DNA from: a virus
DNA length: 64,000 nt
IMG/VR virus record: IMGVR_UViG_3300024333_000005
Span: 21,242 to 85,241 of that record
Reading direction: 5' to 3' (one strand)
Position numbers and translations under genes: made by a program. Shown in pieces: positions 36,714 to 61,216 of the stretch. Every line of letters starts with the position of its first letter. Position 1 is the first letter of the stretch. The notes beneath the pieces were generated by a model. The model searched no databases, was not told where the DNA came from, and saw nothing but the letters and a program-made list of their open reading frames with translations.

Positions 36714-37801
36714 GCGTTCCCTCGCACGCTCGGGCCCGGCGCCTGGGTGCCGCCCTGGCCCGGGGGGTAGCCGGCTGCGATGCCCATATCGCGGCGGCTG
36801 CTCCCCGGGCCCGGGGCGTCCTCCCCTCCGGCTGCGACGCGCTCGACGCGGCGCTGGGAGTCGGGGGCTACCCGGAGGGCCGCCTGACGGTCCTGCATGG
36901 CCCGGAAGCCTGCGGCAAGTCCACCCTCGCCCTGCACGCGGCGGCCGAGTGCCAGCGGGCCGGCGGGGTGGTCCTCTACCTCGACTTCGAGCACAAGCTC
37001 GACGAGCCCTACGCGGCCGCCCTGGGCGTTGACCTGGGGGCCCTGGTGGTCGCGACGCCGCCCCATATCGAGCGGGCCTTCGCTCTCCTGGAGCAGGCGT
37101 GCGCCAAGCTGGCGGAGGGCGACGGCGAGCCAACGCCGGTGCTCCTGGTCTGGGACTCGCTCCACGCGGCCGTGGGCCGCCGGACCTTCGAGGCGGACTG
37201 GGAGAAGGAGCACTTCTCCCCGGAGGCCCGGGCCTACTCCCTGGGCCTGGCCCGCTTCGTCCCCACCCTTTCCCGGACTCGGGCAGTTCTGCTCGCCATC
37301 TCCCAGGTCCGCATGAAGCTCGACGGCTACATGCCGGCCGAGAAGGTCGGGGTCGGCCGGGCGCCCCTGTTCTACGCTTCGGTGATCGTGAAGCTGCGGG
37401 CCAAGCGGGCCCGGGGCACGGTGCGCCGGGAGGGCGAGCTGGTCGAGGCGGTGGTGGTCAAGAACCAGGTCGCGCCGCCCTACCGGGTGGTGAACTTCCC
37501 GATGGTCTACGGCCGGGGCGTCGACGGCCCCGGCGCGGTCCTGGAGGCGGCTCGTCTGACCGGGCTGGCCGTGCCGGCCAAGGCGGCCGGCTGGTGGGAC
37601 CTGGCCTTCGACGGTGAGTCGGTCAGGGTCCAGGGCGCCGGCGGCGTGGGCCGGATGGCCGAGCGGGAGCCCGAGTCCTACGCCCGGCTGCGGGCGGCGA
37701 TCCGGGCCGCCAGCTTGGGGCCGACGCTGCCGGCTCCCGCCGAGCCCTCCCCCGCCGGGGGAGAGGGCGACGCCGACGACGCGGGCGGCGCCGATGGCTG
37801 A
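36710..37801 (+). CDS. recA: RecA-like recombinase
   Basis: 'LD.ALGVGGYP.GR', 'GPEACGKST', 'D.EH.LD..YA..LGVD', 'DS', 'SQVR', 'FYASV', 'VKNQVAPP'. Confidence 0.95.
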   Translation: MSVPSHARARRLGAALARGVAGCDAHIAAAAPRARGVLPSGCDALDAALGVGGYPEGRLTVLHGPEACGKSTLALHAAAECQRAGGVVLYLDFEHKLDEPYAAALGVDLGALVVATPPHIERAFALLEQACAKLAEGDGEPTPVLLVWDSLHAAVGRRTFEADWEKEHFSPEARAYSLGLARFVPTLSRTRAVLLAISQVRMKLDGYMPAEKVGVGRAPLFYASVIVKLRAKRARGTVRREGELVEAVVVKNQVAPPYRVVNFPMVYGRGVDGPGAVLEAARLTGLAVPAKAAGWWDLAFDGESVRVQGAGGVGRMAEREPESYARLRAAIRAASLGPTLPAPAEPSPAGGEGDADDAGGADG

Positions 37802-43975: not shown

Positions 43976-44413
43976 GTGCCGAGCCGGCCCCTGGGCGACC
44001 TCCCGGGGCAGACGTTCACGATCACGATCCCCGGCGCGCCTACAGCTTCGGCTACCTGCCCGGCCTGCCGGCACGCCTTCGAGACGCCAAGCCGGCCGGC
44101 CCGGGTGAACGTCACCATCAACCGCGGCCTGAACGGGACCCTGCAAGAGACCTTCGTCGAAGGTGCTTCGCCGGCCGCCTGCGGTACCGTCAACGCCCTC
44201 TGCCGGGTGCTCTCCTGCGCCCTCCAAGCGGGGGTCCCGGTCGAGGATCTGGCCCGGATGATGCGCGGCCAGGCTGACGGCGGGTCCCCGGTGCCCTGGC
44301 CGGGCGGGGGCCTGGTGGTGTCCTTGCCCGATGCCCTGGCGCGGCTCCTGGAGGCTACCGCCAAGGCAGACCCGGACAAGCCGGTAGGACTGGGAGATGC
44401 CTCGCAGCCCTAA
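43976..44413 (+). CDS. Stand-alone TSCPD-domain protein (NrdJ C-terminal-like)
   Basis: 'VTIN......E.F', 'AL.R.LS.ALQ.GVP.E.L...MRG', 'SLPDALAR.L'. Confidence 0.75.
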   Translation: MPSRPLGDLPGQTFTITIPGAPTASATCPACRHAFETPSRPARVNVTINRGLNGTLQETFVEGASPAACGTVNALCRVLSCALQAGVPVEDLARMMRGQADGGSPVPWPGGGLVVSLPDALARLLEATAKADPDKPVGLGDASQP

Positions 44414-44723
44414 CGACCGTTCTGCCGATCTGCGCCGCCGGCGCATCGCGGCCGGGCTCTGCCCCCGGTGTGGCGCCGAGCCGGTGCCTGGCCGGCGCCA
44501 GTGCGCCCGCTGCCTGGCCGACGCCTCCCGGCGCTCGGCCGTTTCGGCCCGCCGGATCAGGGCCGACCGGCGGGCTCGCGGGGTCTGCTACGACTGCGGC
44601 CGGGCGGCGGCCGAGTGCCAGGCGGGGAACCTGCGCTGCGAAGCCTGCCGCGCCCGCCTGCGCCCCATCAACCGCGCCCGACAGGCCCACCGGCGGGAGC
44701 AGGCTCGGGAGGCCGGCCAGTGA
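44397..44723 (+). CDS. Arg-rich protein with tandem Cys4 zinc fingers
   Basis: 'RR.AAGLCPRCG...CARC' and 'RRARGVCYDCG...CEAC'. Confidence 0.7.
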   Translation: MPRSPNDRSADLRRRRIAAGLCPRCGAEPVPGRRQCARCLADASRRSAVSARRIRADRRARGVCYDCGRAAAECQAGNLRCEACRARLRPINRARQAHRREQAREAGQ

Positions 44724-44929
44724 CCCTCGGCGGCATCAACCCGCCCTCGTCCCTGTACGTGGTGGCCTGCCCGGACGGGGTGACGAGCCCCTATGCCTAC
44801 CTGGAGGCCGGGCCGGCCCTGGCCGAGGCGGACCGCCGGAACGGGCCGGGCGTCTGCCCCGGCTGCCGGGGGCCGCATCGGGTGGTCCGCTACCGGCCCG
44901 AGGTCCTGGTCCCGAAGGCCGGCGCCTGA
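44720..44929 (+). CDS. Small hypothetical protein
   Basis: GTGA-coupled ORF with CPGC..H. Confidence 0.5.
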   Translation: MTLGGINPPSSLYVVACPDGVTSPYAYLEAGPALAEADRRNGPGVCPGCRGPHRVVRYRPEVLVPKAGA

Positions 44930-44930
44930 C

Positions 44931-45731
44931 GTGCCCGCCGCCGGCCCCAGGCTGCCCCAGGACCGAGGGAAGGCCGCGGCCGGCCCTCCCGCCCCTCCTC
45001 TGGGGCCCCCGAGCCCTGGCGGGTCGTCCCGGCCTGGCAACGGCAGTCCTCGCCCTCATCCCTCGCCCTGGAGCCCGCGCCTGATCCCCGAGCTGCGCCT
45101 GCTCCTGCCGCGGGGCCTGGTGGTGGACCCCTTCGGTGGCGTGGGCCGCCTGGGCTTGCTTGGCGCCGCCTGGCGGGTCCTGGCTGGCGACCTGGAGCCG
45201 GAGTGGGCAGCGCAGGCGCCGCGCCACGGGGCTCGCGGCTTCGTCTGGGACGCCCGAGCCCTCCCCTTCGCCGACGCCTCTCTCCCCTGCATCGCCACCT
45301 CCCCCGCCTTCGGCAACCGGCTCGCCGACGCCTATCTGCCGCCCGACTACGGCCGGGGCGACGAGCGCCGCTCCCACGCGTCCCGGCGGACCTACTCCCT
45401 GGCCCTGGGCCGGCCGCTCACCCTTGGCTCCGGCGCCGGCCTCCCCTGGGGCGAGCCCTACCGGCAGCTCCACTGGGAAGCCCTGCACGAGTTCTGCCGG
45501 GTCCTGCGCCCGGGCGGCCTGCTGGTGGTCAACGTGAAGGACCACGTCCGGGCAGGGCGCCGCCGGAAGGTCTGCGCCTGGTGGGCGAAGGCCATTGCCG
45601 CGGCCGGCTTCGAGGTCGTGGAACGGCGCCGCCTCCCCGCCCGGGGCGACCAGAACCTCGCTCGGGCCCGGGCCCAGGGCCGGGAGGTGGTCGAGGACGA
45701 GGAGCTGATCGTGGCTCGGAGGAAGGGATGA
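44931..45731 (+). CDS. DNA amino-methyltransferase-like protein
   Basis: Motif I 'VDPFGGVG', 'GDLE', 'DA..LPF', motif IV variant 'TSPAF', 'RVLRPGG', 'NVKD'; start uncertain. Confidence 0.8.
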   Translation: MPAAGPRLPQDRGKAAAGPPAPPLGPPSPGGSSRPGNGSPRPHPSPWSPRLIPELRLLLPRGLVVDPFGGVGRLGLLGAAWRVLAGDLEPEWAAQAPRHGARGFVWDARALPFADASLPCIATSPAFGNRLADAYLPPDYGRGDERRSHASRRTYSLALGRPLTLGSGAGLPWGEPYRQLHWEALHEFCRVLRPGGLLVVNVKDHVRAGRRRKVCAWWAKAIAAAGFEVVERRRLPARGDQNLARARAQGREVVEDEELIVARRKG

Positions 45732-45943
45732 ACCTGTACTGGGTGGCCCAGGCGGACGCGATCCGCAAGCGCCACTGGGACCTCACCACGGCCACCCTGC
45801 ATGGCCCCCCGCCGGGCGACTGGTGGACCCGCTGGGTGGAGGACGTGGGCGTCCTGCTCGTGCTCCTGGACGCGGAGCAAGCCCGCAGTGCCAGCGTGCG
45901 CCTCCGGCTGGAAGAGCTGGCGGCCGCCCTGCGGGGCCCGTGA
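45728..45943 (+). CDS. Hypothetical protein
   Basis: ATGA-coupled, GGAGG RBS. Confidence 0.6.
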   Translation: MNLYWVAQADAIRKRHWDLTTATLHGPPPGDWWTRWVEDVGVLLVLLDAEQARSASVRLRLEELAAALRGP

Positions 45944-46491
45944 GCCGCGCCTGCCGGGGCCGGCTTCGCTGCGACGGCTGCTGGCGGGCCTGCTCCTACG
46001 CCCGCTTCCGGGGCCGCGTCCCGGTCCCCGGAGGCCCCCGAGATGGCCGACGCCCCCTCCCGCCCTGGCCGCTCTTTGCGGACGAGGGCCGGGCCCAGCA
46101 GCTTCGGCTCACCGAAGCCATAGCCGAGGGCCGAGGGAAGGGCGCCACGCGCCGCACCATCCTGGGGGCCCTGCGCCGGGCCAAGCTCGATGCCTGGGAA
46201 CGGGCCCTGGCGGCCTGCCCCCGGCGCGGCGAGGCCCTCCCGCGCACCACCGAGGAAGCCCTGGAGCTGGCCTTCGCCCTCCCCGCGGTCGAGTTCCGCC
46301 AGCGCTTCCTTGGCTGGACCCCGGCCCGGGCCCGGGCCCGGCGCCAGGCGCTCTCCCTGGCCGAGTTCGCAACCTGGTGGCGGAAGGCTGGGGCCCAACC
46401 CGAGCTTCCCTTCCGGCCCCCCGACCCCGACCTCGACCCCGACGAGAGCCCCTGGAAGTACCTGCTCGACCGGGAGGAGGGCCTGGCATGA
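45940..46491 (+). CDS. Hypothetical protein with N-terminal Cys cluster
   Basis: GTGA-coupled ORF. Confidence 0.6.
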   Translation: MSRACRGRLRCDGCWRACSYARFRGRVPVPGGPRDGRRPLPPWPLFADEGRAQQLRLTEAIAEGRGKGATRRTILGALRRAKLDAWERALAACPRRGEALPRTTEEALELAFALPAVEFRQRFLGWTPARARARRQALSLAEFATWWRKAGAQPELPFRPPDPDLDPDESPWKYLLDREEGLA

Positions 46492-47111
46492 ATGCCCGCT
46501 CGCCCATCCCGGGCCTGGAGGCCCTGCTCGTCCCGGCCGTCACCACCCTGGTCCTGGGCCCCCTCCCCACCAACCCTCGCCCGGTCCCGCTGATCAGGGT
46601 CTCCCCGGACGCCTTCCCGCACCCCGGCCTGCGGGCCCTCCCGCATCGCCTCCCCTTCCGCGCCGCTGCCTTCCGCCAGGCCATCCTCTTCCCGCCCCGA
46701 AGCCCCCGGCCCGGGAGGAACGACTACGACGAGGCCCTGCCGCCCTCCGAGCTGGCCCGGGCCCCGGCCTCCGACCCTCATCCCCTCGACCTGGCGGCCT
46801 ACCCCCCGGGACCGACGTACTGGCGCCTGGCGGCGTACCTCGCCGACGAAGTACGCCGGGTGCTGGCCGCGGGCAAAGGAAGCTCGCACGGCCGCCTGGT
46901 GCTGGTGGTCAAGGACTTCATCGACCAGGGTGTCCCGGTGCCGATGGTGGCCACCTGGTACGACCTCTTCCTGGCCCGGCGCTTCGCCGTCGAGGGCCAC
47001 TGGCGGGAGATGACCCCCGCTTCCTGGGAGCGGCGCCGAGCAGCCCTTCCCTGGGCCCACCACCCGACCGTCGATCACTGGAACCTCCTGATGCTCCGCA
47101 AACTGGCCTGA
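46488..47111 (+). CDS. Degenerate methyltransferase-like protein
   Basis: 'LPF...F..AILFPP', 'EVRRVL', 'LVLVVKDF..QG' parallel the MTase at 44931 but motif I is missing. Confidence 0.5.
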   Translation: MNARSPIPGLEALLVPAVTTLVLGPLPTNPRPVPLIRVSPDAFPHPGLRALPHRLPFRAAAFRQAILFPPRSPRPGRNDYDEALPPSELARAPASDPHPLDLAAYPPGPTYWRLAAYLADEVRRVLAAGKGSSHGRLVLVVKDFIDQGVPVPMVATWYDLFLARRFAVEGHWREMTPASWERRRAALPWAHHPTVDHWNLLMLRKLA

Positions 47112-47474
47112 CAGGCCGACCTGCGGCCCGCGCCCTGCCATCCAAACCGCTGGCCCGAACCCCGGGAAGGGGCGCAGACCCGCACCATTGGCCGAGATGC
47201 GAGGATGGGCCGCGGAACCCTTTTTCTCGCCATCCCCTCTCTTTGGCCGGCAAGCCTCGGATCTTCCTCGGTTTTCAGGCGGCTCGGCGGCCCCGGTTCG
47301 GGGGTGAGCAAACAGGGGCGAACCCCCTACCTTGTCCTCCATTACCCACACCAAGGTTCGCGCCCCCGCCGCGCCTTCCCCCTCCCCTGCACCCCTCCCT
47401 CTACCGAGGGCACCCCTCTCCCCCTATAGTCCCCCTCTCCCCGGTCCCGGGGAGCCGGCCGAACGCCCGTTCGG

Positions 47475-47691
47475 TTTTGAGCGAAGCGTATCAGGCGGAG
47501 GACCCGCCCGGAGGCCCGGCGGGCCGCTTTTTGAGCGAAGCGTATCAGCGAGACCGGCCGGACGCCCCGAAAGGGTCCCCCTGCAAGGTCAAAAAAGACG
47601 AAGAACAAGGGAAGATCAGCGGCTTGCAGAACAGGGTTCGCGGCTGGCCAGGGCCGGCGAGCGCCCCGCGCCTGATACGCTTCGCTCAAAA
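47475..47691. repeat. Three identical 20-bp boxes TTTTGAGCGAAGCGTATCAG (two direct, one inverted)
   Basis: 47475-47494 and 47529-47548 on +; reverse complement at 47672-47691. Confidence 0.92.
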
Positions 47692-48217
47692 TGCCCCTGG
47701 CGGCCCTTCCTGCCCCCTTTCCGCCTGCTCCCTGCCCGCTGCCCCGGATGCGGCTCGCCCCCGCTCTACAGGCCCGCCTGCGCCCCCTCCCCGCCCTCCC
47801 CCGGCCCCAGGCCCTAGCAGCCCTCCCCTGCACGGGCGAGCAGCCTATCTCCCGAATGCTCGTGCTCCCGGCGCGGGGGTCGGTCCCGGAGGACCTTCCC
47901 CGCGGCCACCCGTGCGGCCGGGAACCGGATTGACCGATTCGCGGGCCTGCGGCCAAAACTGGCACTGGACAACCGAGCAGACCTGGCCGGCGGGCTCCTG
48001 CCATATGCGCGCCCGCGCTGGAGGTCGGGCAATGTCCTCCCTGGTCGCACCTCTGCGCACCCCTGCCTGCCCCCCTGCCACCTCCCCCGGCGGCCGGCGG
48101 CGAGGGGGACGCGGACAGGGAAGGAGACGAGGGCGACGGGAGGGCGATGTCCTCCATGTCGTACCCCCCCCGGACTGGCTTGCGGATCGGGGGCGGATCG
48201 GGTGATCGCGGAGGCTG

Positions 48218-48368
48218 CCAGACCCTCTCTGCGTTCGCGAGGCCGGCGGAGGGGTCTGGTCTCCAGGGCCACGCCTCTCTGCGTTCGCGAGGGAGGGGGA
48301 GGGGGAGGGGTCTGGTCCGCCAGGGGTGCCCGCTCTGCGTTCGCAAAGAAGGGGGAGGGGTCTGGTCG
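48218..48368 (+). repeat. Three degenerate ~50-60-bp tandem units with G-tracts
   Basis: CTCTGCGTTCGC and GGAGGGGTCTGGTC each occur three times in alternation. Confidence 0.85.
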
Positions 48369-48432
48369 GGGTGGCCGGGGGCGGCGCCGACGGCGCGCCA
48401 AGCCTCCCCCGGCGCCCGGGGTAGGGAGGGGC

Positions 48433-48756
48433 ATGCACCGGATCACCGACCGGGAAGCCCTGGCCCTGACTCGGAAGCGGCTCGCCCTTTGGAAGGCCAA
48501 GCGGGCCAAGGAGCAAGCTCTGCTCAACTACGAGCGAACCGAGGAAGCCCTGGCCGCCCAGCTCCGGGCCATCATTGCCCGGATGGAGGCCCACTGGGAG
48601 ACGCAGCCCGAGCGCTGGCAGGAGGGGGTGGAGGGGCGGCTCTTCCGGGCATGGTGGCGGCACTGGGAGAGGCAACTGGTAGCTCGTCCTCTCGACCCGG
48701 TCCTCGTGGCCGAGCTGGCCTGGGGCTGGGGCGCCGAGCTTCCCCGGGAGAAGTGA
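48433..48756 (+). CDS. Hypothetical protein
   Basis: GGGAGG RBS; coupled to the next gene. Confidence 0.65.
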   Translation: MHRITDREALALTRKRLALWKAKRAKEQALLNYERTEEALAAQLRAIIARMEAHWETQPERWQEGVEGRLFRAWWRHWERQLVARPLDPVLVAELAWGWGAELPREK

Positions 48757-49547
48757 TGCCTCGTCAGCTCAAGCCATACTCGGTCGGGGAGGTCGTGGAC
48801 TCGGAGAGCGGGGTCAGGGTCCCGCTGTTCCTCGACCGGAACGCCTCGCCCAAGGTGTTCTTCGGGGAGGTCTTCGGGGAGCGGCTGGCGGCGGCCACCG
48901 AGGTCGAGGTCAAGCGCCTGGTCCTGGCCCGGCTCCGGGAGGGCGTGACCTACGAGTGGGAGCGGATTGTCGTGGTCCACACCCAGGGGAGCTTCGGGGA
49001 CCGCGGGTTGATCGTGGAGTTCGGCGAGCGCGAGATTGCCCGCCGTCCGGCCGGGGGCGACCCTTGCCGCCCCTGGGTGGAGCGGAGGGTCCGTCCGGTG
49101 CGCGACCGCGTCGAGGCGACCATCAGCTCCTACTCGGGGCCGACCGAGAGCCGGCCCGAGGACGGGGTCTTCGTCTTGCCCTGGAGCGAGGCGACGATGC
49201 TCGGGCTGCGGGACATCAAGGCCCGGCTGGACCTGCTCCGGGCGCGGCTGCGGGAGGTCCTGGGAGCGCCCGAGGCGCCCGTGCTGCTCGCCCGGCTGGT
49301 GAAGGCGCTACCTGCGCCGGCCGAGGCGCCGGCCGAGGCCCCTGCCCCGCCCGGCGAGCCGGCCGAGCCGGAGGCAAGCGGGACGGTGGAGCTGGAGGCC
49401 CACTTCCAGCTTGGCCCGGACGCGGCGCCGTGGTGCCAGGCGTGCGGGTCCTACCACGTCGCCCCGGCGGACGCCGCCCACCACCAGGCGCTCCGGTGTC
49501 GGGCCCCGTGGCCGCCGGCCGGGGCTCCGGCGGAGGGGTCGAGGTGA
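48756..49547 (+). CDS. Hypothetical protein
   Basis: TGATG coupling; protein-like composition. Confidence 0.7.
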   Translation: MPRQLKPYSVGEVVDSESGVRVPLFLDRNASPKVFFGEVFGERLAAATEVEVKRLVLARLREGVTYEWERIVVVHTQGSFGDRGLIVEFGEREIARRPAGGDPCRPWVERRVRPVRDRVEATISSYSGPTESRPEDGVFVLPWSEATMLGLRDIKARLDLLRARLREVLGAPEAPVLLARLVKALPAPAEAPAEAPAPPGEPAEPEASGTVELEAHFQLGPDAAPWCQACGSYHVAPADAAHHQALRCRAPWPPAGAPAEGSR

Positions 49548-49984
49548 CCGACGCTGACCGCGCTCTCGCTCGCCGCGCTGCCGCCTGCGAGCACTGGAAG
49601 TGGCGGGCCGGCATGCGGGTCGTGATCTCCTATGCCGAAGCTACAGCCAGCGCCCGCATCGTGAGCGCCCGCCTGGACGGGATCGCGTGCGCGGACGAGC
49701 GCGGACTCCGCTACGGGTGGCACCACCTGGGGGCTGGCCCTGCACAAGAGCGGTGCCTGCCCGACCTCGCGGACGCGGCCACGATGGGTTGCCTCCTTGC
49801 CCTCGTGCGGGAGGCGTGGCCGGGGTGGCGCGTCACCGTCGAGTGGGGCGGGGAGCCCTCGGACCCGGAGTACGGGTGGGTCGCCGTCTGCTACGACGAC
49901 CGCACCGGCGAGGTGCGGACGCTCGGCCCCGACGGAGGCACCGAAACCGACGCCCTCGTTGCGGCGCTGGAAGCGGCGCCGTGA
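49544..49984 (+). CDS. Hypothetical phage protein
   Basis: GTGA-coupled; 'LARRA.AC.HW.W..GM...LPDL.D.AT.GCLLALVREAW'. Confidence 0.7.
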   Translation: MTDADRALARRAAACEHWKWRAGMRVVISYAEATASARIVSARLDGIACADERGLRYGWHHLGAGPAQERCLPDLADAATMGCLLALVREAWPGWRVTVEWGGEPSDPEYGWVAVCYDDRTGEVRTLGPDGGTETDALVAALEAAP

Positions 49985-50072
49985 CCTGGGCCGCACCGCT
50001 CCTGTCCGCCGCCTGCGGGGGCGGGCGACCGCTCCCCGGGCCGGACGCAGGGCGGGCGGCCGCGGAGGCCCC

Positions 50073-50954
50073 GTGACCGACGCAGAGCGAGTGGCCGAGC
50101 TGCTGGCGCGGTGCGCCCGCACCGAGCATCTGCTGCGCCGCGAGCGCGAGCGGATCGCCGTGCTCTACGACGTGCTGGAGGAACGCTACCTCCAGGACTT
50201 CCGGTGGGAAGACCAGAGCCATCTCCCGGACGGCACCGGGGACGAGGCTGCCCGGGCGCAAGCTTGCGTGGCCAAGGCGGCGTGCCAACGGGCTGCGGAT
50301 GCCGGCCGGGTGACCTGGCGCCACGTCCTCGCCGAGGAAGTCGCCGAAGCCTTGGCCGAAGCCGAGCCGGCGAAGCTGCGCCGTGAGCTGGTCCAGGTCG
50401 CGGCCGTTGCGGCAGCATGGGTCGAGGCCCTTGACCGCAGATCCAGGGGAGTCGCCGCGGTGGTCGCCCGCGGGGACGCGGGAGGCGCGGCCGACGCCGC
50501 GGACGAAGGAGGCGCCCCCATGACCGCTTCTGCCTCTCCGGCCGAGGGCCGCAAGCGCCCGCCGGCGACGCTGACCCACGACGAGGGAGCCGTAGCCCGC
50601 TGCTCGTTCTGCGGACGATACACGCTCGATCCCGCGGCCCTCGGTCCCGCGGCGAGGCAACCGGACTGCGAATGCGGCCGGCGGGACGGCTGGTGCGGGT
50701 CCTTCGTGCCTCCCGGCGATGACGCGCAGTGGTCGCGCAAGGCGCCGCCACGCGTCGTCGCGGTACCAGACACCCTGGAGGCGCTGGCGGCCCGGATTGC
50801 CCGGGCCGAGCCGGGGGCGGCCGACGACCTCGCCGCCGCGCTGACCGGCCTGCGGACAGACGTGGGTGTGCTGGACCTGCGGGTGCGGGCGCGGCTGGAG
50901 CGGATCGAGGCGTACGTCGCCGCGCTGGCCAAGGCGAGGGACGTGAAGCCGTGA
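50073..50954 (+). CDS. MazG-like NTP pyrophosphohydrolase fused to a Cys-rich domain
   Basis: 'QD.RW..Q.H.PDGTG...TW..VL.EEVAEA..E......RELVQVAAVA.AW.E.LD'; internal RBS and ATG at 50520. Confidence 0.7.
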   Translation: MTDAERVAELLARCARTEHLLRRERERIAVLYDVLEERYLQDFRWEDQSHLPDGTGDEAARAQACVAKAACQRAADAGRVTWRHVLAEEVAEALAEAEPAKLRRELVQVAAVAAAWVEALDRRSRGVAAVVARGDAGGAADAADEGGAPMTASASPAEGRKRPPATLTHDEGAVARCSFCGRYTLDPAALGPAARQPDCECGRRDGWCGSFVPPGDDAQWSRKAPPRVVAVPDTLEALAARIARAEPGAADDLAAALTGLRTDVGVLDLRVRARLERIEAYVAALAKARDVKP

Positions 50955-51385
50955 GTGGGGATGCGCCCCGCTGTCCCCGTTGCGACTGCGAGGACTGCCC
51001 GGCGGCCGCAGTCACCTGGCGGGAGGTCGCGGCGCTCGCCGACGGGTGGGCGCCGGCGGGAGATGCCGAGGACGACCCCCGCGTCCTCGACGACTCGGAG
51101 CGCCACGGGTGCCACGGCGAGCCCGTGGACTGGCGGGCGCGAGCGCTGGAGGCGGAAAGCGAGCGCGGCGCCCTCCTGGCCCGCTGCCTCGCCGCGGTCG
51201 AGGCGATGCCGGACTTCGCGGGGCCATGTTCGTTGTGCCACGGCACCCGCTCGGACGAGTACGGGGCGGAGTGCTCGGAGTGCGATGGCCGCGGCCATCG
51301 GGGGCTGGAGGGCCTGCTGCGCTCCGACGTGCTCGCCGCCCTGCTGCGGGCGGGGGGAGTAGACGGACGACGGAGGCACCCGTGA
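50951..51385 (+). CDS. Cys-rich hypothetical protein (CxxCxGxG-like)
   Basis: GTGA-coupled; CSLCHG...CSECDGRG. Confidence 0.6.
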   Translation: MSGDAPRCPRCDCEDCPAAAVTWREVAALADGWAPAGDAEDDPRVLDDSERHGCHGEPVDWRARALEAESERGALLARCLAAVEAMPDFAGPCSLCHGTRSDEYGAECSECDGRGHRGLEGLLRSDVLAALLRAGGVDGRRRHP

Positions 51386-51828
51386 TCGACGAGCTGCGGG
51401 CGGGCCTGGACCGGCTCAACCAAGCGATGTATGGCGAGGCGAAGGGCCAGAGCTGGCCGGACGCGGAAGCGGCCAAGCTCCTTCGCTACGCGGCCGACCG
51501 AATCGACATGCTGACTGCGGACGGGGATCGGGCCTGGCAGGAAGCCAAGCGGCTGCGCGACGCCCTGTGCCGGCTCACGCAAGAGGTGTCTTCCCTGAAC
51601 GTCGGGGGGCGGGGGCGGGAGTCCTGCTCGACCCTGCTCCGGGAGGCGGGACAGGCCGCGGCGGTGGCGGCGAAGGCCCTGGAGCCGGGCGATGCGCTTC
51701 TGCCAGCATCGCCGGAACTGCCCCGAACCTGCGCCGCGCACTTCCGGGCGACGGTCCAGTGGTGGGACGAACGGCAGACCGAGTGCCCTTTCTGTGCCGC
51801 GCTGAAGGCGCAGTGCCCGGGGGGCTAG
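51382..51828 (+). CDS. Hypothetical protein
   Basis: GGAGG RBS; GTGA-coupled. Confidence 0.6.
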   Translation: MIDELRAGLDRLNQAMYGEAKGQSWPDAEAAKLLRYAADRIDMLTADGDRAWQEAKRLRDALCRLTQEVSSLNVGGRGRESCSTLLREAGQAAAVAAKALEPGDALLPASPELPRTCAAHFRATVQWWDERQTECPFCAALKAQCPGG

Positions 51829-52184
51829 GGCAGGTTCAACCCGATCACGTCCCGCTCCCGGCGCTCGTCGTGGCGGGAGCGCAGGAGGGCCCGCGCCGCC
51901 TGGAGGTGGGAGAGGGCCTGGGCGTTCGCCTCGCAGGGGAAGGGGCCGGCCTGGAAGGCTTCGAGCCGGTCGGCGAGGATGGCGAACAGGTGCTCGTCGA
52001 GCGCTCCCTGGCGGGAGCCCGGCTCCCGGCGCGGGCCATGCTGAAACTCGACCAGAGCCAGGACCAGGTTGTCGGGGTCCTGGACCTCGTAGTAGTGGCT
52101 GGCCCCGCCGGCGTTCGGGTCCCGGTCGTCGGCGAGGACCCGGCCCCACTCGTACTCCGCGACCTGGTGAAGCTCGCTAGGCAT
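51825..52184 (-). CDS. tad1: Tad1-family anti-defence sponge (Thoeris gcADPR / cyclic nucleotide binding)
   Basis: 119 aa; 'GGASHYY...FQHGPR.E..S..G..D..L..I..DRL..FQAGPF...NA.AL.H......R...R.ER.V.G.N' follows the Tad1 pattern over its full length; GGGAGG RBS. Confidence 0.85.
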   Translation of the reverse strand: MPSELHQVAEYEWGRVLADDRDPNAGGASHYYEVQDPDNLVLALVEFQHGPRREPGSRQGALDEHLFAILADRLEAFQAGPFPCEANAQALSHLQAARALLRSRHDERRERDVIGLNLP

Positions 52185-52325
52185 GGCGCCTCCCTGGGGC
52201 GGCAGGGTAGCAGACCCGGGAGGCGGGGCCAAGGGGACGCTCTGGGCTGGCGTAGGGGGGGGGAGTAAGGGCCGGCGCCTGGCGCCAGTTCCAGAAGCCG
52301 GTCGAACTCGCCGCGGAGGAGGACG

Positions 52326-52532
52326 ATGCCCAACCTGAACCTCGCCTGCCTCGTGGTCTGCAACGCGTGCAAGGCCCCCCTCCCGGCTCGGGCCGAGGTC
52401 CACCAGGGAGGGGGCTACACGTTCCTGGTCGAGCCCTGCAAGGGCTGCCTGACTGTGGCCGAGGACCTCGGCTACGAGCGCGGCTACGAGGGCCGGGACC
52501 GGCCCCGGGAGCCGGGTCGTGAGCGAAGCTGA
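52326..52532 (+). CDS. Small Cys4 zinc-binding protein
   Basis: GGAGGAGG RBS; CNAC...CKGC. Confidence 0.65.
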   Translation: MPNLNLACLVVCNACKAPLPARAEVHQGGGYTFLVEPCKGCLTVAEDLGYERGYEGRDRPREPGRERS

Positions 52533-52788
52533 CGAGGTGGCCGCGGCCCTGGCCCTGCTCTGGGGCCGGGCCTGGCCGGGGCCGGGCGTGGCGCCCGAAG
52601 CCCTAGCCCGGCACCTGGGGTGGTGGCGGCGGCCGGGCCCGCCGGCCGACCCGCGGGACCTGGTGCTCGACGCCGGCCGGGCCTACGTAGCGCTGGTGGG
52701 GCTGGAGCGGCGGGATCTCGCTCGGTGCTGTCGGGTGCCCGGGGCGACCTTCTACTGGCGGCCGACGGGGAGAAGGAGCGAGGGATGA
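52519..52788 (+). CDS. Hypothetical protein
   Basis: Coupled ORF ending in ATGA overlap with the next gene. Confidence 0.5.
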   Translation: MSEADEVAAALALLWGRAWPGPGVAPEALARHLGWWRRPGPPADPRDLVLDAGRAYVALVGLERRDLARCCRVPGATFYWRPTGRRSEG

Positions 52789-54020
52789 AGCCAAGGATGC
52801 GAGTGGCCGAGCGGACAATCCGCTCGGCATGGCTCGACGGGGTGGAGGCGGTGGCCTGCCAGGTGACCGCGACCCGGACGGCCGGCCCGCTCCGGTTCGT
52901 CGACCGGGACGACCGGGAACAGGCGGTCCGGGTGGGGGGCGCCCTGGCCGCGGCCGGCCTTCCGGTCGACGCCGAGGTCCGGTTCCATCCGGCGCCGCCC
53001 TTCCCGGCTTCCGAGCTGGATCTGCCCGCGGCCCTGGCGGTCGCCGGGCTGGCCGGCGGCGAGGCGGACCACTTCGACCTGGCCGAGCTGTTGGCGGTCG
53101 GGGAGCTGACCCTCGACGGGCGCCTGCGGTTGGTGCGGGGGGTGGCGCGGATGGTCGCCTCCCCCACCCTGCGCCGGGTGATCGTGCCGGCAGCGAACCG
53201 GACCGAGGCGGTCCTGGCCTCCCGGCCTGGCAACGAGGTGGTGGCCGCGGGCGACCTGGCCGAGGCCCGGCGAGGCGAAGGGTTGCCGGGAGTGCCGGTG
53301 GACCTTCTGCCGGAGCCGAGGCCCCTGCCGCCCCTGCCGCTCTCCCGGGAAGCTCTGGGGCTTCTGTCCTCCGCCCTGGCCTCTCGGCGCCCTCTGCTCC
53401 TGGAGGGGCCGCCGGGGTGCGGGAAGACCGCCCTCGCCCGCCGGCTGCCGGCAGCCCTGCCGCCGCCCTCCCTGTGCGAACGCGAGGAGGTGGTCGCGGC
53501 CCGCTCGGCCGCGGGCCTGCTCGACGTGAACGATCTCGCCTACCTGGGGTACCGCCCCTTCCGGGCTCCGCACCACACCTGCTCGACGGCCGCCTTCGGC
53601 GGCGCCGGGCCGGCCGGGGCGCGGGCCCGGCCAGGAGAGGCCGCTCTGGCCCACCGCGGCGTCCTCCTGCTCGACGACCTCGGCGAGTGGTCCCGGGCGA
53701 CCCTGGAGGTGGTCGCGGCCGCCTTCCGACTCGGAAGCGTGCAGCACCCGCGGGGCGCCCGGATGCCGGCCGTCTTCTGGCCGGTGCTCGCCTCCCCCCT
53801 CTGCCCCTGCGGCCTGCCTCCCCGGTGCGTCTGCCGGCCGGAGACGCTGCGGGCCTGGGAGGCGCGCCGGGCCGGAGTTCTGGCGCTGTTCCCTGGCTGC
53901 GTTCGGCTGCGGGTCGACGAGCTGGCCGGCGGGGCCGAGGCGGCCGGCACGACCGCCGACCTGGCAGACCTGGTGAAGCAAGCCCTCGGAGGAAGCGATG
54001 TCCGCCCCCATGCCGGGTGA
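52785..54020 (+). CDS. comM: ComM/YifB-family Mg-chelatase-like AAA protein, truncated and degenerate
   Basis: 'LDLP.ALA', 'GEL.LDG.LR.V.G', 'IVP.AN..EA', 'GPPGCGKT.LARRL', 'PFRAPHHT', 'PGE..LAH.GVL.LDD', 'CPCG'. Confidence 0.85.
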   Translation: MKPRMRVAERTIRSAWLDGVEAVACQVTATRTAGPLRFVDRDDREQAVRVGGALAAAGLPVDAEVRFHPAPPFPASELDLPAALAVAGLAGGEADHFDLAELLAVGELTLDGRLRLVRGVARMVASPTLRRVIVPAANRTEAVLASRPGNEVVAAGDLAEARRGEGLPGVPVDLLPEPRPLPPLPLSREALGLLSSALASRRPLLLEGPPGCGKTALARRLPAALPPPSLCEREEVVAARSAAGLLDVNDLAYLGYRPFRAPHHTCSTAAFGGAGPAGARARPGEAALAHRGVLLLDDLGEWSRATLEVVAAAFRLGSVQHPRGARMPAVFWPVLASPLCPCGLPPRCVCRPETLRAWEARRAGVLALFPGCVRLRVDELAGGAEAAGTTADLADLVKQALGGSDVRPHAG

Positions 54021-54960
54021 CCTGTCGGCCCAGCTCTCCCGCTACCTGCGGGAGCGGCACGACGCGCTCTCCCCGGAGGCAAGGCTGGTCTGGTCCACCA
54101 GTAGCGACCTGGTCGCCATCCTGCGACTGACCTGGGAGAAGCTGTGGTGGGAGGAGCGGGCCCGGGAGTTCCTGGCCCGGCTCGACGGGGTGGAGGCAGC
54201 CGCGGCCGAGGCGGCCCGGGAGCGCACCGCCCTGGATCGCGGGGCGGCCCGGGTCCTGGAGCGGGTCGAGTGGGGTGGCCCCTGGGGGCGGGGCTACTGC
54301 CCCGACTGCCTGGAGAGCCGGGGGGTGGGGCACACCCCGCGCTGCGGGATTGCCTGGGCGCTCGGGCGTCCCGGGGCGGAGCCCTGGCCCGGCGGCGAGT
54401 CCTCGCCGGCCGAACCCCGGAGCCTGCCCCCGGTGTCCGCGAACGAGATCCGGGTCCTGGCGGCCCAGGCTTTCGAGGCGCTGCGCCGGGTCGCCGGCGA
54501 GTTGTGGGAGAGCCCGCGGCTCCGGGCCTCCGGCCACGACTGCCGGGAGGACTCCCGGGGCGCTCCCTGCCCCTGCTCCCGCGATGGCCGGAGTGCCCCC
54601 GAAGAAGAGTGCGATTGCGGGGCCGCCGAAGACCTCCTGATGGCCAGGAGAGCCTACGCCATCGTCGAGTCGGCCCTGGTCGATGTCCCGGTGCTGCGCT
54701 TGCCCGACCCGCGGCTGACCGAGCCGGCGGTGGTGCGGGGCAAGCGCGGGGTGCCGGTTCCCGGGCTGCCGCCCTGCCCGCCCGGGGGGTGGGTCGAAAT
54801 CGTCCTCCCTACCCCCGGCCCGGCCGCCTGGAACCAGCCGCGGCAATGGGCGGTTCGCGATTCCGAGGGGCGGCTGCTCGGAGAAGCGACTTGCCTGCTC
54901 GACCCGGCGCCCGGGGTGCTGCTCCCGACTGCGGAATGGGACGAGCGGTGCAAGTCGTAG
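53998..54960 (+). CDS. Hypothetical Cys-rich protein
   Basis: GGAGG RBS; CPDC..H..C and further Cys clusters. Confidence 0.6.
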   Translation: MSAPMPGDLSAQLSRYLRERHDALSPEARLVWSTSSDLVAILRLTWEKLWWEERAREFLARLDGVEAAAAEAARERTALDRGAARVLERVEWGGPWGRGYCPDCLESRGVGHTPRCGIAWALGRPGAEPWPGGESSPAEPRSLPPVSANEIRVLAAQAFEALRRVAGELWESPRLRASGHDCREDSRGAPCPCSRDGRSAPEEECDCGAAEDLLMARRAYAIVESALVDVPVLRLPDPRLTEPAVVRGKRGVPVPGLPPCPPGGWVEIVLPTPGPAAWNQPRQWAVRDSEGRLLGEATCLLDPAPGVLLPTAEWDERCKS

Positions 54961-55142
54961 ACGGCCGCCCTCGCCTCTTCCCGGCCGACCCCTGGCCGGC
55001 GGACCCGCAGCGGGAGGGAGAGCACCCCTGCTCCCGGTGCCCGGAGCCCTCACCCACTCCCGACGACTGCCGGCGCTGCGAGGCCAAGTGGGAGCGGGCC
55101 TACGACGACCTGGCCGAGGCGGCTGCCCCGGAGGCGCGGTGA
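54948..55142 (+). CDS. Small Cys4 protein
   Basis: CSRC...CRRC; start uncertain. Confidence 0.45.
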   Translation: MQVVDGRPRLFPADPWPADPQREGEHPCSRCPEPSPTPDDCRRCEAKWERAYDDLAEAAAPEAR

Positions 55143-55390
55143 GCCGGTTGCTCTGGTGGGAGCGGACCCGAGAGGGCTTCTCCCTGCGCCTCCCCTGGCG
55201 GCGGCTCCTGTACGCCGGCCGGGACCGCCACGGCGCCAGGTTCGTTGCCCTGGCCCGCTACGAGGTCCTTGGCGGCTTCATCGTCCTCTTTGGCTCCCGG
55301 GAGCTGCGAGTGACCTGGGGCGGGTGGCGGTGCTGGCAGTGGCCGAATCGGGACGGTGCGGCTCTCGGACGCCTCTGGCTGGAGTGGTGA
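55139..55390 (+). CDS. Small Trp-rich hypothetical protein
   Basis: GGAGG RBS; GTGA coupling. Confidence 0.55.
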   Translation: MSRLLWWERTREGFSLRLPWRRLLYAGRDRHGARFVALARYEVLGGFIVLFGSRELRVTWGGWRCWQWPNRDGAALGRLWLEW

Positions 55391-55391
55391 C

Positions 55392-55700
55392 ATGGCGAAC
55401 CCGAAGGGCTGGGTGAGCAACACCTTCAACCCCGACGAGGTGGCCGCGCTCTGTGCCCTCTTCGCCGCCCTCGACCGGCGAGACCTGGGAGAAGCCCGGG
55501 ACCTGGCGGCGGGCCCGGTCGGCCGCCACCTGCTCGCCCGCTTCCTGCGGATGCGGGAGCGGACCCGGGCCGGGTGTGCCAAGGCCGGCCGTCCCGGCCC
55601 CTGGACGCCACCAGGGGCTCGGCAAGCCCCCGGGGCGGCCCGGAGGCCGGCCCCCCTTCCCTGTCGAGCCCCTGGTGCCCCCTGGGAGGCCCCCCCATGA
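55392..55700 (+). CDS. Hypothetical protein
   Basis: GGAG RBS; C-terminus runs through a dispersed repeat. Confidence 0.55.
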   Translation: MANPKGWVSNTFNPDEVAALCALFAALDRRDLGEARDLAAGPVGRHLLARFLRMRERTRAGCAKAGRPGPWTPPGARQAPGAARRPAPLPCRAPGAPWEAPP

Positions 55701-56038
55701 ACCGGACGGACGAGTACCTGGTCAAGAGCATCCGCCGGATCGCCCGGATGGCCGGCCGGCTGGACGACCCCTCGGTTGTGGCCTTCGCCGCGCTGTGGGA
55801 GGGGGAGGCCCGCCTGATCCTCGTCCTGGTCGCCGGCTCCAGGCCGCGGGCCTGGGCCGCCCTCACCTGGCGGTGGGTGGCCGAGGCGGTGCGGCGCCTG
55901 GCGAGCAGGCTCTACTGGCGCTGGTCGGACCTGCGGGGCCGGACCTGGGTGGACGCCGATGGCCTGCGGCACTCGGCCGCCTGCCCGGGCGCCTGCGACG
56001 CGGAACCCTGTCTCCTGCCTGGGGAGGAAGCGCAGTGA
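55697..56038 (+). CDS. Hypothetical protein
   Basis: GGAGG RBS; ATGA coupling. Confidence 0.6.
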   Translation: MNRTDEYLVKSIRRIARMAGRLDDPSVVAFAALWEGEARLILVLVAGSRPRAWAALTWRWVAEAVRRLASRLYWRWSDLRGRTWVDADGLRHSAACPGACDAEPCLLPGEEAQ

Positions 56039-56322
56039 CCGGGTGGACGGCGGTGGCCCTGGCGGCCCTCCTGGTCGGCGCCACCCTCGGCTACCTGGCA
56101 GGATGGGTGGCGGGCCACCAAGCGGCCCGACGAGCTGCCCGCCGGGCGGGAGCCGCGGCGCTGCTCCCTGCCCCCGACGCCCACCTGGGGCACCTGTTCC
56201 TCGACCTGGATGCCGCCTCCTACCGGCTGCGGCGGCACCTGCGGGCCTGCCGCCGCTGCCGGGAGGCCCTGCCGGCGGTGCTGGCGGCTCGCCAGCGGGC
56301 GGGGCGCAGCGGGCTCAACTAG
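56035..56322 (+). CDS. Small membrane protein
   Basis: N-terminal TM 'WTAVALAALLVGATLGYLAGWVAG'; H...CxxC. Confidence 0.6.
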   Translation: MTGWTAVALAALLVGATLGYLAGWVAGHQAARRAARRAGAAALLPAPDAHLGHLFLDLDAASYRLRRHLRACRRCREALPAVLAARQRAGRSGLN

Positions 56323-56409
56323 CGCAAGTGCCTGGGGTTTCCGGCCGCGGCACTACTTCGCCTCTCCTGCGCAGCGAGGGGCGCGGCTGCCGCTGGCGCT
56401 GTCGTCCGC

Positions 56410-59791: not shown

Positions 59792-61216
59792 TTGTCCCCC
59801 CGCCCCCGCCCGTCCCCGGCCGCTCGGGCCGACCTGCTCCGCCGCCTGGAGGAGGCGAAGGCCCTGCGCCGAGAGTGGCTGCGCCGGCAGATTCTGGAGC
59901 GGGACCGAATCGACCTGCTCGCCAGCGAAGTCCTCGGCTACGAGGTCCGCCCGCACCACCTGGACCTGCTCCAGCATCAGCACCGCTTCCCGGACCGCAA
60001 CCTCGCCCTGGCCTGGCGGGGAGCCGGCAAGACCACCGTCCGCACCGTCTGCCGGGCGATCTTCCTCCTGCTCAAGAACCCGAACGCCCGCATCCTCCTG
60101 GCTTCCAAGTCGAGCCTGAACGCCGCGGCCATGCTGGCCGAGATCAAGGGCCGCCTGACCTCGCCGGCCTTCGAGGAGGTCTTCGGGGTCTGGCAGGGGC
60201 CGAAGTGGGACGACATCGCCATCCAGGTCCGGCCCCGGACCTCCGGCGCCAAGGAACCGAGCGTCGGAGTGGTGGGCGCCGAGTCCAGCATCGTCTCCCT
60301 GCACTGGGACGCCCTGCTGGTGGACGACCTGGTGGACGAGGAGAACGCCCGCACCCCGACCCTGCGCAACCGGCTCCAGACGCTCTTCTACAAGGCCCTG
60401 CTCCCGACCCTGGTACCGGGCGGTGAGCTGTCCCTCTGCGGGACCCGCTACCACCACCTCGACCTCTACGGCCACCTGGCCGAGAACGAGATGGCGGGCC
60501 CCCGGACCCTGGTGGTCCCCGGCCTGCGGGGGAGCGACGAGCAGGGCTGGGAGGCGGTCTGGCCGGAGCGCTTCTCGGTGGAGCACCTGCTCGCCCTGCG
60601 CAGAAGCATGGGGAGCATCCTCTGGGACTCGCAGTACCTCTGCTCGACTCGCAAGATGGCCGGCGGCGGCTTCGTCGACTTCGAGTGGTGCCAGCGGGTC
60701 GCGGCCACCGAGGTGCCCGCCGACGCGCCCCGCTTCCTGGGCGCCGACCTGGCGATCAGCATGGCGCCCGGGGCCGACCGCTTCGCCGTTGTCGTCGAAG
60801 CATGGGACTCGACCTCCGACCGGCGCTGGGTGGTCGACGGCTACGCCGGCCGCCGGCCGCCGCACGAGCAGCGGCGGATCATCGCCGACCACTACCGGCG
60901 GCACCGCTGCGTGCGGGGGTGCATCGAGAGCAACGCCTACCAGGCGGCGCTCATCTCCGACCTGCGCCGGGAACAGCCCGACCTGGTCCTGGTCCCCTCC
61001 CACACCGGCGCCGCCAAGGAGGCGCGGATGCTCGCCCTGGCCGCGGCCCACGAGGACCTGCGGGTCTTCTACGCCGAGGGGCTGGACTGGCTCGTCGAGG
61101 AAATGGTGCTCTTCCCGACCGGCGCTCACGACGACGGGTTCGACGCCCTGGACCTGGCCCACCGGGCGACCCGCTACCGGCAGCGGAAGGCCCGCCGGGA
61201 AGTCGGCTTGCTCTAG
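59792..61216 (+). CDS. terL: Terminase large subunit
   Basis: 'RGAGKTT', 'LLVDDLVDE', 'GTRYH..DLYG', 'WPERF', 'GADLA', 'HDD..DAL'. Confidence 0.95.
   Translation: MSPRPRPSPAARADLLRRLEEAKALRREWLRRQILERDRIDLLASEVLGYEVRPHHLDLLQHQHRFPDRNLALAWRGAGKTTVRTVCRAIFLLLKNPNARILLASKSSLNAAAMLAEIKGRLTSPAFEEVFGVWQGPKWDDIAIQVRPRTSGAKEPSVGVVGAESSIVSLHWDALLVDDLVDEENARTPTLRNRLQTLFYKALLPTLVPGGELSLCGTRYHHLDLYGHLAENEMAGPRTLVVPGLRGSDEQGWEAVWPERFSVEHLLALRRSMGSILWDSQYLCSTRKMAGGGFVDFEWCQRVAATEVPADAPRFLGADLAISMAPGADRFAVVVEAWDSTSDRRWVVDGYAGRRPPHEQRRIIADHYRRHRCVRGCIESNAYQAALISDLRREQPDLVLVPSHTGAAKEARMLALAAAHEDLRVFYAEGLDWLVEEMVLFPTGAHDDGFDALDLAHRATRYRQRKARREVGLL

Follow-up and report, generated by a model that had tools for sequence, protein, structure and literature searches.

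A phage-encoded ComM/YifB homolog without trans-acting arginines belongs to an apparently undescribed, often lid-less group

Introduction

ComM (YifB) is a hexameric branch-migration helicase, a motor that extends recombination in natural transformation, and mobile elements have repeatedly knocked it out; the available part of PMC12378983 describes insertion into comM as a way in which they often disable it. For Legionella ComM, the accessible text of PMC11612176 assigns cis-acting roles to K224, T225, and E302, trans-acting roles to R316 ("sensor 3") and R463 ("arginine finger"), a sensing role to R381, and a proposed DNA contact to pore-hairpin residue R328, and it places a long linker at residues 170 to 190. 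DprA docks on the Mg-chelatase C domain and in this way recruits ComM (PMC12012524, in its available part). Here, we report on a gene for a ComM/YifB homolog of 411 amino acids (aa), P0001, which lies in a stretch of 64,000 nucleotides (nt) of viral DNA (the window; positions 21,242 to 85,241 of the IMG/VR record IMGVR_UViG_3300024333_000005). A preliminary description of the window had presented the protein as a truncated, apparently ATPase-dead subunit and had inferred that it would poison the ComM rings of the host.

P0001 resembles ComM/YifB, as represented by the structure 8rxd, in its domain order and in the fold of its Lon-like N-domain and AAA+ core with an embedded Cys4 cluster, and Walker A, the PFRAPHHT motif, and the pore-hairpin Arg are common to both. 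It differs in lacking the Mg-chelatase C domain, the sensor-3 Arg, and the LLDRID Arg, in carrying Glu-to-Asp and Asn-to-Pro replacements, and in being encoded by a phage. RadA/Sms, a RecA-fold branch-migration helicase, shares the Lon-like ring scaffold (Foldseek matches 5lkq and 5lkm), but its ATPase fold is another one and its domain order is opposite. In Mg-chelatase pairs of the BchI/BchD type, a degenerate AAA+ subunit partners an active one, and in BchD it is the ATP-binding side that is degenerate. BchI (1g8p) is a weak structural match to the P0001 model in Foldseek, and the concept of a mixed assembly, with one subunit of this superclade catalytically incomplete, carries over; in P0001, however, the trans-acting side is the one lost, and the phage has no partner gene.

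As far as sequences can tell, the ComM/YifB family is best described as having a phage-associated, arginine-less, and often lid-less form, and P0001, in which hydrolysis looks dead, is an extreme case of it. This group of phage proteins is apparently undescribed so far. A full-text literature search found no description of phage ComM-like proteins without these arginines, and in the available portion of Iyer et al. 2017, RadC and RadA/Sms appear while ComM has no whole-word occurrence.

Results and Discussion

A ComM/YifB homolog with its trans-acting residues missing

P0001 is a ComM/YifB homolog encoded by a phage. In Pfam, it matches Mg_chelatase (PF01078; E value of 1e-31, aa 194 to 364) and the ChlI/Lon-like family (PF13541; E value of 2e-7, aa 65 to 138, 31.4 bits against a cutoff of 27), whereas Mg_chelatase_C (PF13335) is not among the 18 Pfam families matched at an E value of ≤1. 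The full-length models score below their cutoffs, with 118.8 bits for the NCBIfam YifB model TIGR00368 (cutoff, 362.4) and 77.1 bits for PRK09862 (cutoff, 530). The best solved relative by sequence is Legionella ComM (8rxd; E value of 1.2e-27), residues 72 to 362 of P0001 aligning with residues 75 to 374 of 509. An AlphaFold2 (AF2) model built from 35 sequences is confident (mean predicted local distance difference test [pLDDT] score of 88.8; predicted template modeling score of 0.87). When it was compared with the Protein Data Bank by Foldseek, ComM chains were the best matches (E value of 1.9e-25; template modeling score of 0.68); the ComM Lon-domain hexamer 8rxs and the protease domains of Lon and RadA were matched as well. 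A complex prediction for two P0001 copies returned a score of 0.00, which gives no verdict and is evidence neither way.

Close relatives were scarce. Identity to P0001 does not exceed 46% in any other protein found, and the only match above 50% is the same protein with another start. A search of viral contigs with P0001 alone gave 17 pattern matches and no relative. In INPHARED, tblastn returned 14 records, none covering 80% of the query; 12 are unannotated fecal "Bacteriophage sp." contigs, and 2 are Acinetobacter phages with a comM fragment at the start of the record. The PHROGs search with P0001 gave P-loop-level matches only, and BFVD holds one full-length look-alike, a "Putative ATP-dependent protease" of an uncultured Caudovirales phage.

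We read the motif columns from the translation and from an alignment of 268 homologs. The Lon-like N-domain, Walker A, PFRAPHHT, and CPCG, which the preliminary description had listed as kept, are borne out by Pfam, the translation, and this alignment. The second acid of Walker B is Glu in 253 of the 268 homologs and Asp in 9, as in P0001 (Asp298); the acidic pair corresponds to residues 302 and 303 on the 8rxd chain, counted from the alignment. The sensor-1 column holds Asn in 238 and Pro in 2, and P0001 has Pro338. With the DR[IF]D motif absent and no PF13335 match, the LDD form of Walker B, the missing sensor Asn, the missing LLDRID arginine finger, and the missing C-terminal domain are all as first reported. 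Only 68 aa follow CPCG in P0001, versus ~155 aa in canonical ComM. Mapped on the Legionella roles, P0001 has Ala at sensor 3, an LLDRID segment without Arg, and nothing in place of the domain on which R463 would lie. Still present are the pore-hairpin Arg (R323) and the four zinc cysteines (C340, C342, C348, and C350), which are invariant in the relatives' alignment, together with Walker A, PFRAPHHT, and the Lon-like N-domain. We infer from this pattern of residues that P0001 is probably "ATPase-dead."

An arginine-less group of phage ComM-like proteins

Short proteins (~370 to 460 aa) are frequent among the 150 best representatives of the relatives. A CxCG motif is present in 259 sequences; in 46 of them, fewer than 110 aa follow it, and DR[IF]D is missing from 43 of these 46. 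The tails of the short relatives read like "...LFDxVIEVP," which is the canonical strand with its Arg replaced. Scanning IMG/VR with the relatives' alignment gave 118 relatives, of which we kept 80 loci. Many of these are internal genes of 60- to 300-kb contigs, mostly high in GC and of the same architecture, and others are pieces of comM that lie at the end of a contig, the pattern that prophage insertion into comM would give. Twelve of the contigs start inside the comM frame (L020, L033, L037, L038, L041, L055, L057, L059, L065, L068, L076, and L080), which is the expected signature of prophage integration into host comM.

In a midpoint-rooted FastTree phylogeny of 310 sequences (265 search proteins and 45 viral open reading frames [ORFs]), P0001 falls in a group of 62 (support, 0.944) that is nested in a group of 89 (support, 0.987) containing 19 IMG/VR loci. 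Leave-one-out hidden Markov models score P0001 at 313 bits against the group and 238 bits against the canonical rest. The sensor-3 Arg is present in 18 of the 89 members but in 213 of the 221 sequences outside the group, the LLDRID Arg in 9 members versus 198 outside, and a tail of <80 aa in 44 versus 7. The cis residues are kept in most of the group: Walker A Lys in 81 members (219 outside), Walker B Glu in 80 (214 outside), and sensor-1 Asn in 59 (213 outside). No newly conserved residue stands in for the lost arginines. In Legionella ComM, E22 pairs with R117 in a salt bridge of the Lon ring; most of the group has lost the equivalent Glu too, and P0001 has Thr there. On these alignments, truncation and arginine losses are traits of a deep and diverse group of phage ComM-like proteins, which looks monophyletic and old and not like a recent capture from hosts.

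Loss of the Walker B Glu coincides with loss of the sensor-1 Asn (7 of the 9 Glu-less members versus 23 of the other 80; Fisher P value of 0.006, uncorrected for phylogeny). As the nine Glu-less members occupy at least three separate places in the tree, hydrolysis seems to have been dropped repeatedly within the group, to judge by its catalytic residues.

P0001 shares with other arginine-less phage loci (e.g., L004, L006, L019, L023, and L048) the lost trans arginines, the short or missing lid, and a position in an accessory or early region. It differs from the rest of the group in being one of the nine members without the Walker B Glu, and in having no RadC neighbor, and it is the most divergent of the 21 phage copies by Pfam score. 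The search for phage homologs with the same losses, which the preliminary description had proposed, thus had a mixed outcome: the arginine losses recur, but Walker B Glu and sensor-1 Asn are mostly retained. Much the same holds for its interpretation. That P0001 should be no canonical ring motor is supported, the more so as the sensor-3 Arg and the R463 domain are missing too. Truncation and loss of the arginine finger are, in contrast, traits of the group and not a special device of this phage.

On the cellular side, 69 ComM ORFs were parsed from the best 80 of at least 600 genome-contig matches, and all are canonical; 67 have the Arg motif, and the other 2 are cut by contig ends. Eleven of the 80 loci were left out as unparsed, and the result describes the matches listed, without being proof that the group is absent from cells.

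Some arginine-less members carry additional sequence. The 1,091-aa ORF L002:3278-6553 and the 1,157-aa P0219 are fused to long, unrelated C-terminal extensions, and L027:9950-11596 has a 191-aa tail that is not a lid.

A maintained gene

It is also important to ask whether P0001 is a decaying, functionless capture of a bacterial comM. Its branch is long (1.30), its catalytic residues are degenerate, and it has no close relatives usable for the ratio of nonsynonymous to synonymous substitution rates, points that would fit such decay. Against this, of 66 columns with ≥85% conservation among the other 34 short members, P0001 has the family residue in 62. This places it at rank 18 of 35, typical of the family; the four deviations are M216A, L271F, E298D, and F302W. 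In addition, the 411-codon frame is intact in DNA of 76% GC, with a Shine-Dalgarno sequence and translational coupling, the AF2 model is confident, the codon bias is like that of the neighbors, and the same architecture recurs in complete phage genomes. The description of the gene as an intact, translationally coupled ORF with a ribosome-binding site holds in each part: there is no internal stop, AAGGAG lies 6 nt upstream, and the start overlaps the preceding stop as ATGA. Because the conserved columns are kept, we take P0001 to be maintained rather than decaying; the ComM-like gene is a real, maintained phage gene. We regard neutral decay, which the preliminary description had named as refuting its proposal, as extremely improbable.

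Phages that carry the relatives

We searched 20 phage records, comprising 17 of the 19 group loci (two near-duplicates were left out) and L004, L021, and L023, which are short arginine-less copies outside the 89 (L004 lies outside in the tree; L021 and L023 are not in it). Direct terminal repeats occur in 5 of the 20, 9 are at least 90% complete, and every record has one strong ComM-like copy. The carriers are true phages.

The carrier of P0001 is an uncultured lake phage with an 85,241-bp record that ends with the 64-kb window. The record has a GC content of 74%, its genes lie nearly all on one strand, and its completeness by CheckV is 82%. It encodes a portal protein (PF04860), a large terminase, the DNA polymerase III (Pol III) alpha subunit, a DnaB-like helicase, RecA, SbcD, and SbcC, and the ComM-like gene is internal to the record, not at a prophage-host junction; portal, terminase, Pol III alpha, and RecA confirm the phage-borne status that had been assigned to it. 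In this 82%-complete record, we found no integrase, no DprA, no match to RadC (PF04002), and no second ComM-like copy. L019 and this phage have in common the order of ComM-like gene, small ORF, terminase, and portal, with 36% identity between the terminases and 44% between the portals.

Among 133 neighbor ORFs of the relatives, RadC is the most recurrent family (four ORFs); DUF5983 (two), DUF4942, and DUF3560 occur too, among ordinary phage genes. RadC-like JAB genes lie directly upstream of the ComM-like gene or within ~1.5 kb downstream of it (L003:1451-2164, L006:8856-9503, L039:185-835, L004:12511-12954, and L063:11725-12378). Elsewhere, the gene directly upstream encodes a DUF3560 protein (L001) or a DUF4942 protein (L023).

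Possible modes of action

On balance, we lean toward reading P0001 as a ComM-derived AAA+ protein of a phage-associated arginine-less group that is not a motor and acts through nucleotide-dependent binding. It keeps the cis half of a ComM subunit and the scaffold: a P-loop, Asp in Walker B, the zinc-binding Cys4 cluster, Arg on the pore hairpin, and the ring domain of the Lon type. All trans contributions are lost. These are the Arg of sensor 3, that of LLDRID, and the C-terminal domain, which in ComM bears Arg463 and is also the DprA docking site. In P0001, two cis catalytic residues are gone as well, through the Walker B Glu-to-Asp and sensor-1 Asn-to-Pro changes. Because it would offer no residues to a neighbor's ATP site, the sequential hydrolysis of a ring helicase is not expected, given AAA+ mechanism and what the available text of PMC11612176 reports. 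Judged by its predicted active site, then, P0001 cannot be a processive branch-migration motor, and since no motor function seems possible, we read it as acting through nucleotide binding. The one-sided pattern of loss suggests an "acceptor-only" subunit, which would present bound ATP to the arginines of a partner without activating its own neighbor. Such a subunit could form inert or open assemblies on DNA, or it could put an end to the assembly of a ComM-type ring with the host protein. ATP binding without turnover and DNA binding are, like this mode of action, predictions that we infer from the residues kept and lost.

Several points weigh against this preferred reading. The Glu-to-Asp change at Walker B is conservative, and some hydrolysis may be left. 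Glu in Walker B and Asn at sensor 1 are present in most members, so that the family, and perhaps P0001 with it, may still hydrolyze ATP in some way. The RadC partner of other phages is absent here, and neither of the two ORFs coupled to the ComM-like gene has a Pfam or PHROGs match. The coherence of the group could also be inflated by long-branch effects, as the sequences were chosen as the nearest to P0001 and the FastTree phylogeny was rooted at its midpoint. Genomic context is at hand for 19 of the 89 members; the other 70, including P0001, entered as search proteins, and the ten nearest lie on contigs of ≤14.6 kb. Finally, ESM Atlas holds clusters of ~400-aa look-alikes labeled "Bacteria."

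Some of these points would also fit a still active ATPase or helicase, in which catalysis relies on Asp298 as base and the arginines are replaced by other basic residues or by a partner. P0001 still has Walker A, the Asp-Asp pair of Walker B, Arg on the pore hairpin, and the zinc cluster, and the retention of Glu and Asn in most relatives suggests that hydrolysis matters in the family. However, P0001 has none of the three trans-acting arginines and no sensor-1 Asn, the group has no compensating conserved residue, and the PF01078 score of P0001 (112 bits) is the lowest of 21 phage copies (the others score 115 to 237). We consider residual motor activity quite improbable.

The dominant-negative poison of the preliminary description corresponds to the second of the two acceptor-only assemblies, the one with the host protein, and it is compatible with the anatomy of P0001. 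The phage subunit would enter host ComM rings through its Lon-like domain and ATP-bearing face and, by giving the next site no arginines, would stall them, and ComM-dependent recombination or curing would be blocked. The one-sided losses, with trans residues gone and cis residues kept in most of the group, speak for it, as does the lack of a second ComM-like copy as partner, both in this phage and in the 20 related records. Having no domain on which DprA can dock would suit a decoy, and disabling comM is a habit of mobile elements, as the insertions cited above and the 12 IMG/VR loci that begin in a comM fragment illustrate. On the other side, no other protein found exceeds 46% identity to P0001, the group is deep, separate from canonical ComM, and not tracking hosts, and the Lon-ring interface is changed at the E22-R117 position. 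Nor does the proposed motive of blocking transformation-mediated curing fare well: this phage has no integrase, only 7 of the 20 relatives' records have one, and the group looks old, with P0001 at most 46% identical to anything else. We judge a poison of host rings to be rather unlikely. A BrxL-like decoy role was weighed too, and we do not adopt it.

Alternatively, P0001 could be an accessory factor of the phage's own recombination or replication, a nontranslocating ring or mediator on branched DNA or DNA ends that partners phage RecA, SSB, SbcCD, or, in other phages, RadC. This phage encodes RecA, SbcD, SbcC, a DnaB-like helicase, and Pol III alpha, and RadC-like JAB genes occur within the examined flanks of 7 of the 20 loci (directly upstream in L003, L006, and L039) and in 8 of the 20 whole records. 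Yet the ComM-like gene lies ~15 kb from the RecA/SbcCD block, among orphan ORFs upstream of the terminase, RecA is found in only 5 of the 20 related records, and a motorless recombination helper has no obvious task. This alternative is doubtful in its turn, and we see an accessory role, be it with RadC in other phages or in the RecA-based recombination of this one, and a dominant-negative poison as about equally likely.

Taken together, widespread phage ComM derivatives appear to have retained the half that binds nucleotide and DNA, but neither the domain where DprA docks nor the half of the ATPase site that acts in trans. If that is true, they could form a new class of proteins that inhibit a recombination motor of the host or act as its decoys, or the ComM fold could have found a new use in the DNA handling of phages, without motor function and possibly with RadC. 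A wider generalization, which we put forward as speculative and on present evidence unlikely, is that large phages from many lineages carry acceptor-only ComM mimics, often beside a RadC-like gene, as a general mimicry route for controlling host recombination or transformation during infection. Such proteins would block ComM-type rings of the host by capping or jamming them, or would sit on the DNA that these rings act on, and P0001 would be an extreme case that has given up hydrolysis.

Genomic surroundings and read support

The features of the gene and its main landmarks are collected in Table 1. The protein collection holds both P0001 and a form with a later start (P0002), each present on five contigs. 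The GC content at third codon positions (GC3) of the ComM-like gene is 0.88, close to that of the surrounding accessory genes.

Table 1. Positions of the ComM-like gene, its motifs, and neighboring features in the 64-kb window
Feature	Position	Strand	Basis or remark
RecA homolog	36818-37525 (ORF 36710-37801)		PF00154, E value of 3.6e-47; adjoins SbcD, SbcC, and Pol III alpha genes
Upstream 89-aa ORF	52519..52788	+	TGA overlaps the ComM-like ATG as ATGA; GC3 of 0.89; no family match
Shine-Dalgarno sequence AAGGAG	52773..52778	+	6 nt before ATG
ComM/YifB-like gene, 411 aa (P0001)	52785..54020	+	Intact ORF, no internal stop
Alternative 407-aa form (P0002)	Start at ATG 52797		In protein collection
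Lon-protease-like N-terminal domain, aa 8-165	52806..53279	+	PF13541 at aa 65-138; AF2 model; Foldseek
Proline-rich linker, aa 166-190	53280..53354	+	Translation; pLDDT dip in AF2 model
AAA+ core, Mg-chelatase/MCM type, aa 191-377	53355..53915	+	PF01078 at aa 194-364; 8rxd alignment
Walker A GPPGCGKT, intact	53406..53429	+	
PFRAPHHT motif, intact	53556..53579	+	
Walker B VLLLDD; Asp298 in place of catalytic Glu	53661..53678	+	
Sensor-3 Arg position (Legionella R316), Ala311 here	53715..53717	+	Trans-acting site in ComM
Arg323, pre-sensor-1 hairpin Arg (Legionella R328, proposed DNA contact), kept	53751..53753	+	
Sensor-1 position, Pro338 for Asn	53796..53798	+	
Cys4 cluster CPCGLPPRCVC (embedded zinc finger), four Cys kept	53802..53834	+	
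AGVLALFPGCVRLRV in place of SGPLLDRIDLxVxV	53871..53915	+	Strand (373-376) kept; no Arg at finger position
34-aa tail, one helix (aa 390-400), in place of ~120-aa Mg-chelatase C domain	53916..54017	+	
Downstream 320-aa ORF	53998..54960	+	Overlaps ComM-like 3' end by 23 nt; GGAGG 5 nt upstream; no family match
Large terminase	59792-61216		phrog_38, E value of 8e-66

The gene lies in a block (44400-56400) made almost wholly of ORFs without a family, which has a weaker codon bias (GC3 of ~0.8 to 0.9) than the structural and replication genes (0.94 to 0.99). Within it, the ORF at 49797-50954 matches phrog_2831, of unknown function, and the ORF at 44793-45731 has a marginal Methyltransf_11 match only (E value of 3e-4; no stretch passes alone). 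PADLOC returned nothing for three neighbor ORFs and only P-loop-level matches for P0001 itself. Outside the block, the phage encodes a MoxR/CbbQ-type AAA+ ATPase at 26358-27281 (AAA_5, E value of 1.8e-18; CbbQ_C, E value of 7.5e-7), which is its second helix-2-insert AAA+ protein.

We compared the reads of four lake-water sequencing runs (X10 to X13) with the window; no RNA data are listed among the sequencing runs found to contain the sequence. Run X10 gave a 2,306-base contig over 52085-54389 with no differing letters and one gap outside the gene, and X11 to X13 gave short identical pieces; there is no variant inside the ComM-like gene in the four runs. At full depth (714.8), the X10 contig has one G more than the window after position 52254. 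The site lies upstream of the small ORFs preceding the ComM-like gene, and the difference could be a frameshift there or stem from assembly. In the same run, a second contig over 54360-54787, part of the downstream 320-aa ORF, shows 56 differences in 428 bases at a depth of 34, versus 616 for the identical form. A diverged allele of the downstream gene thus coexists with the identical form, while the ComM-like gene is invariant.

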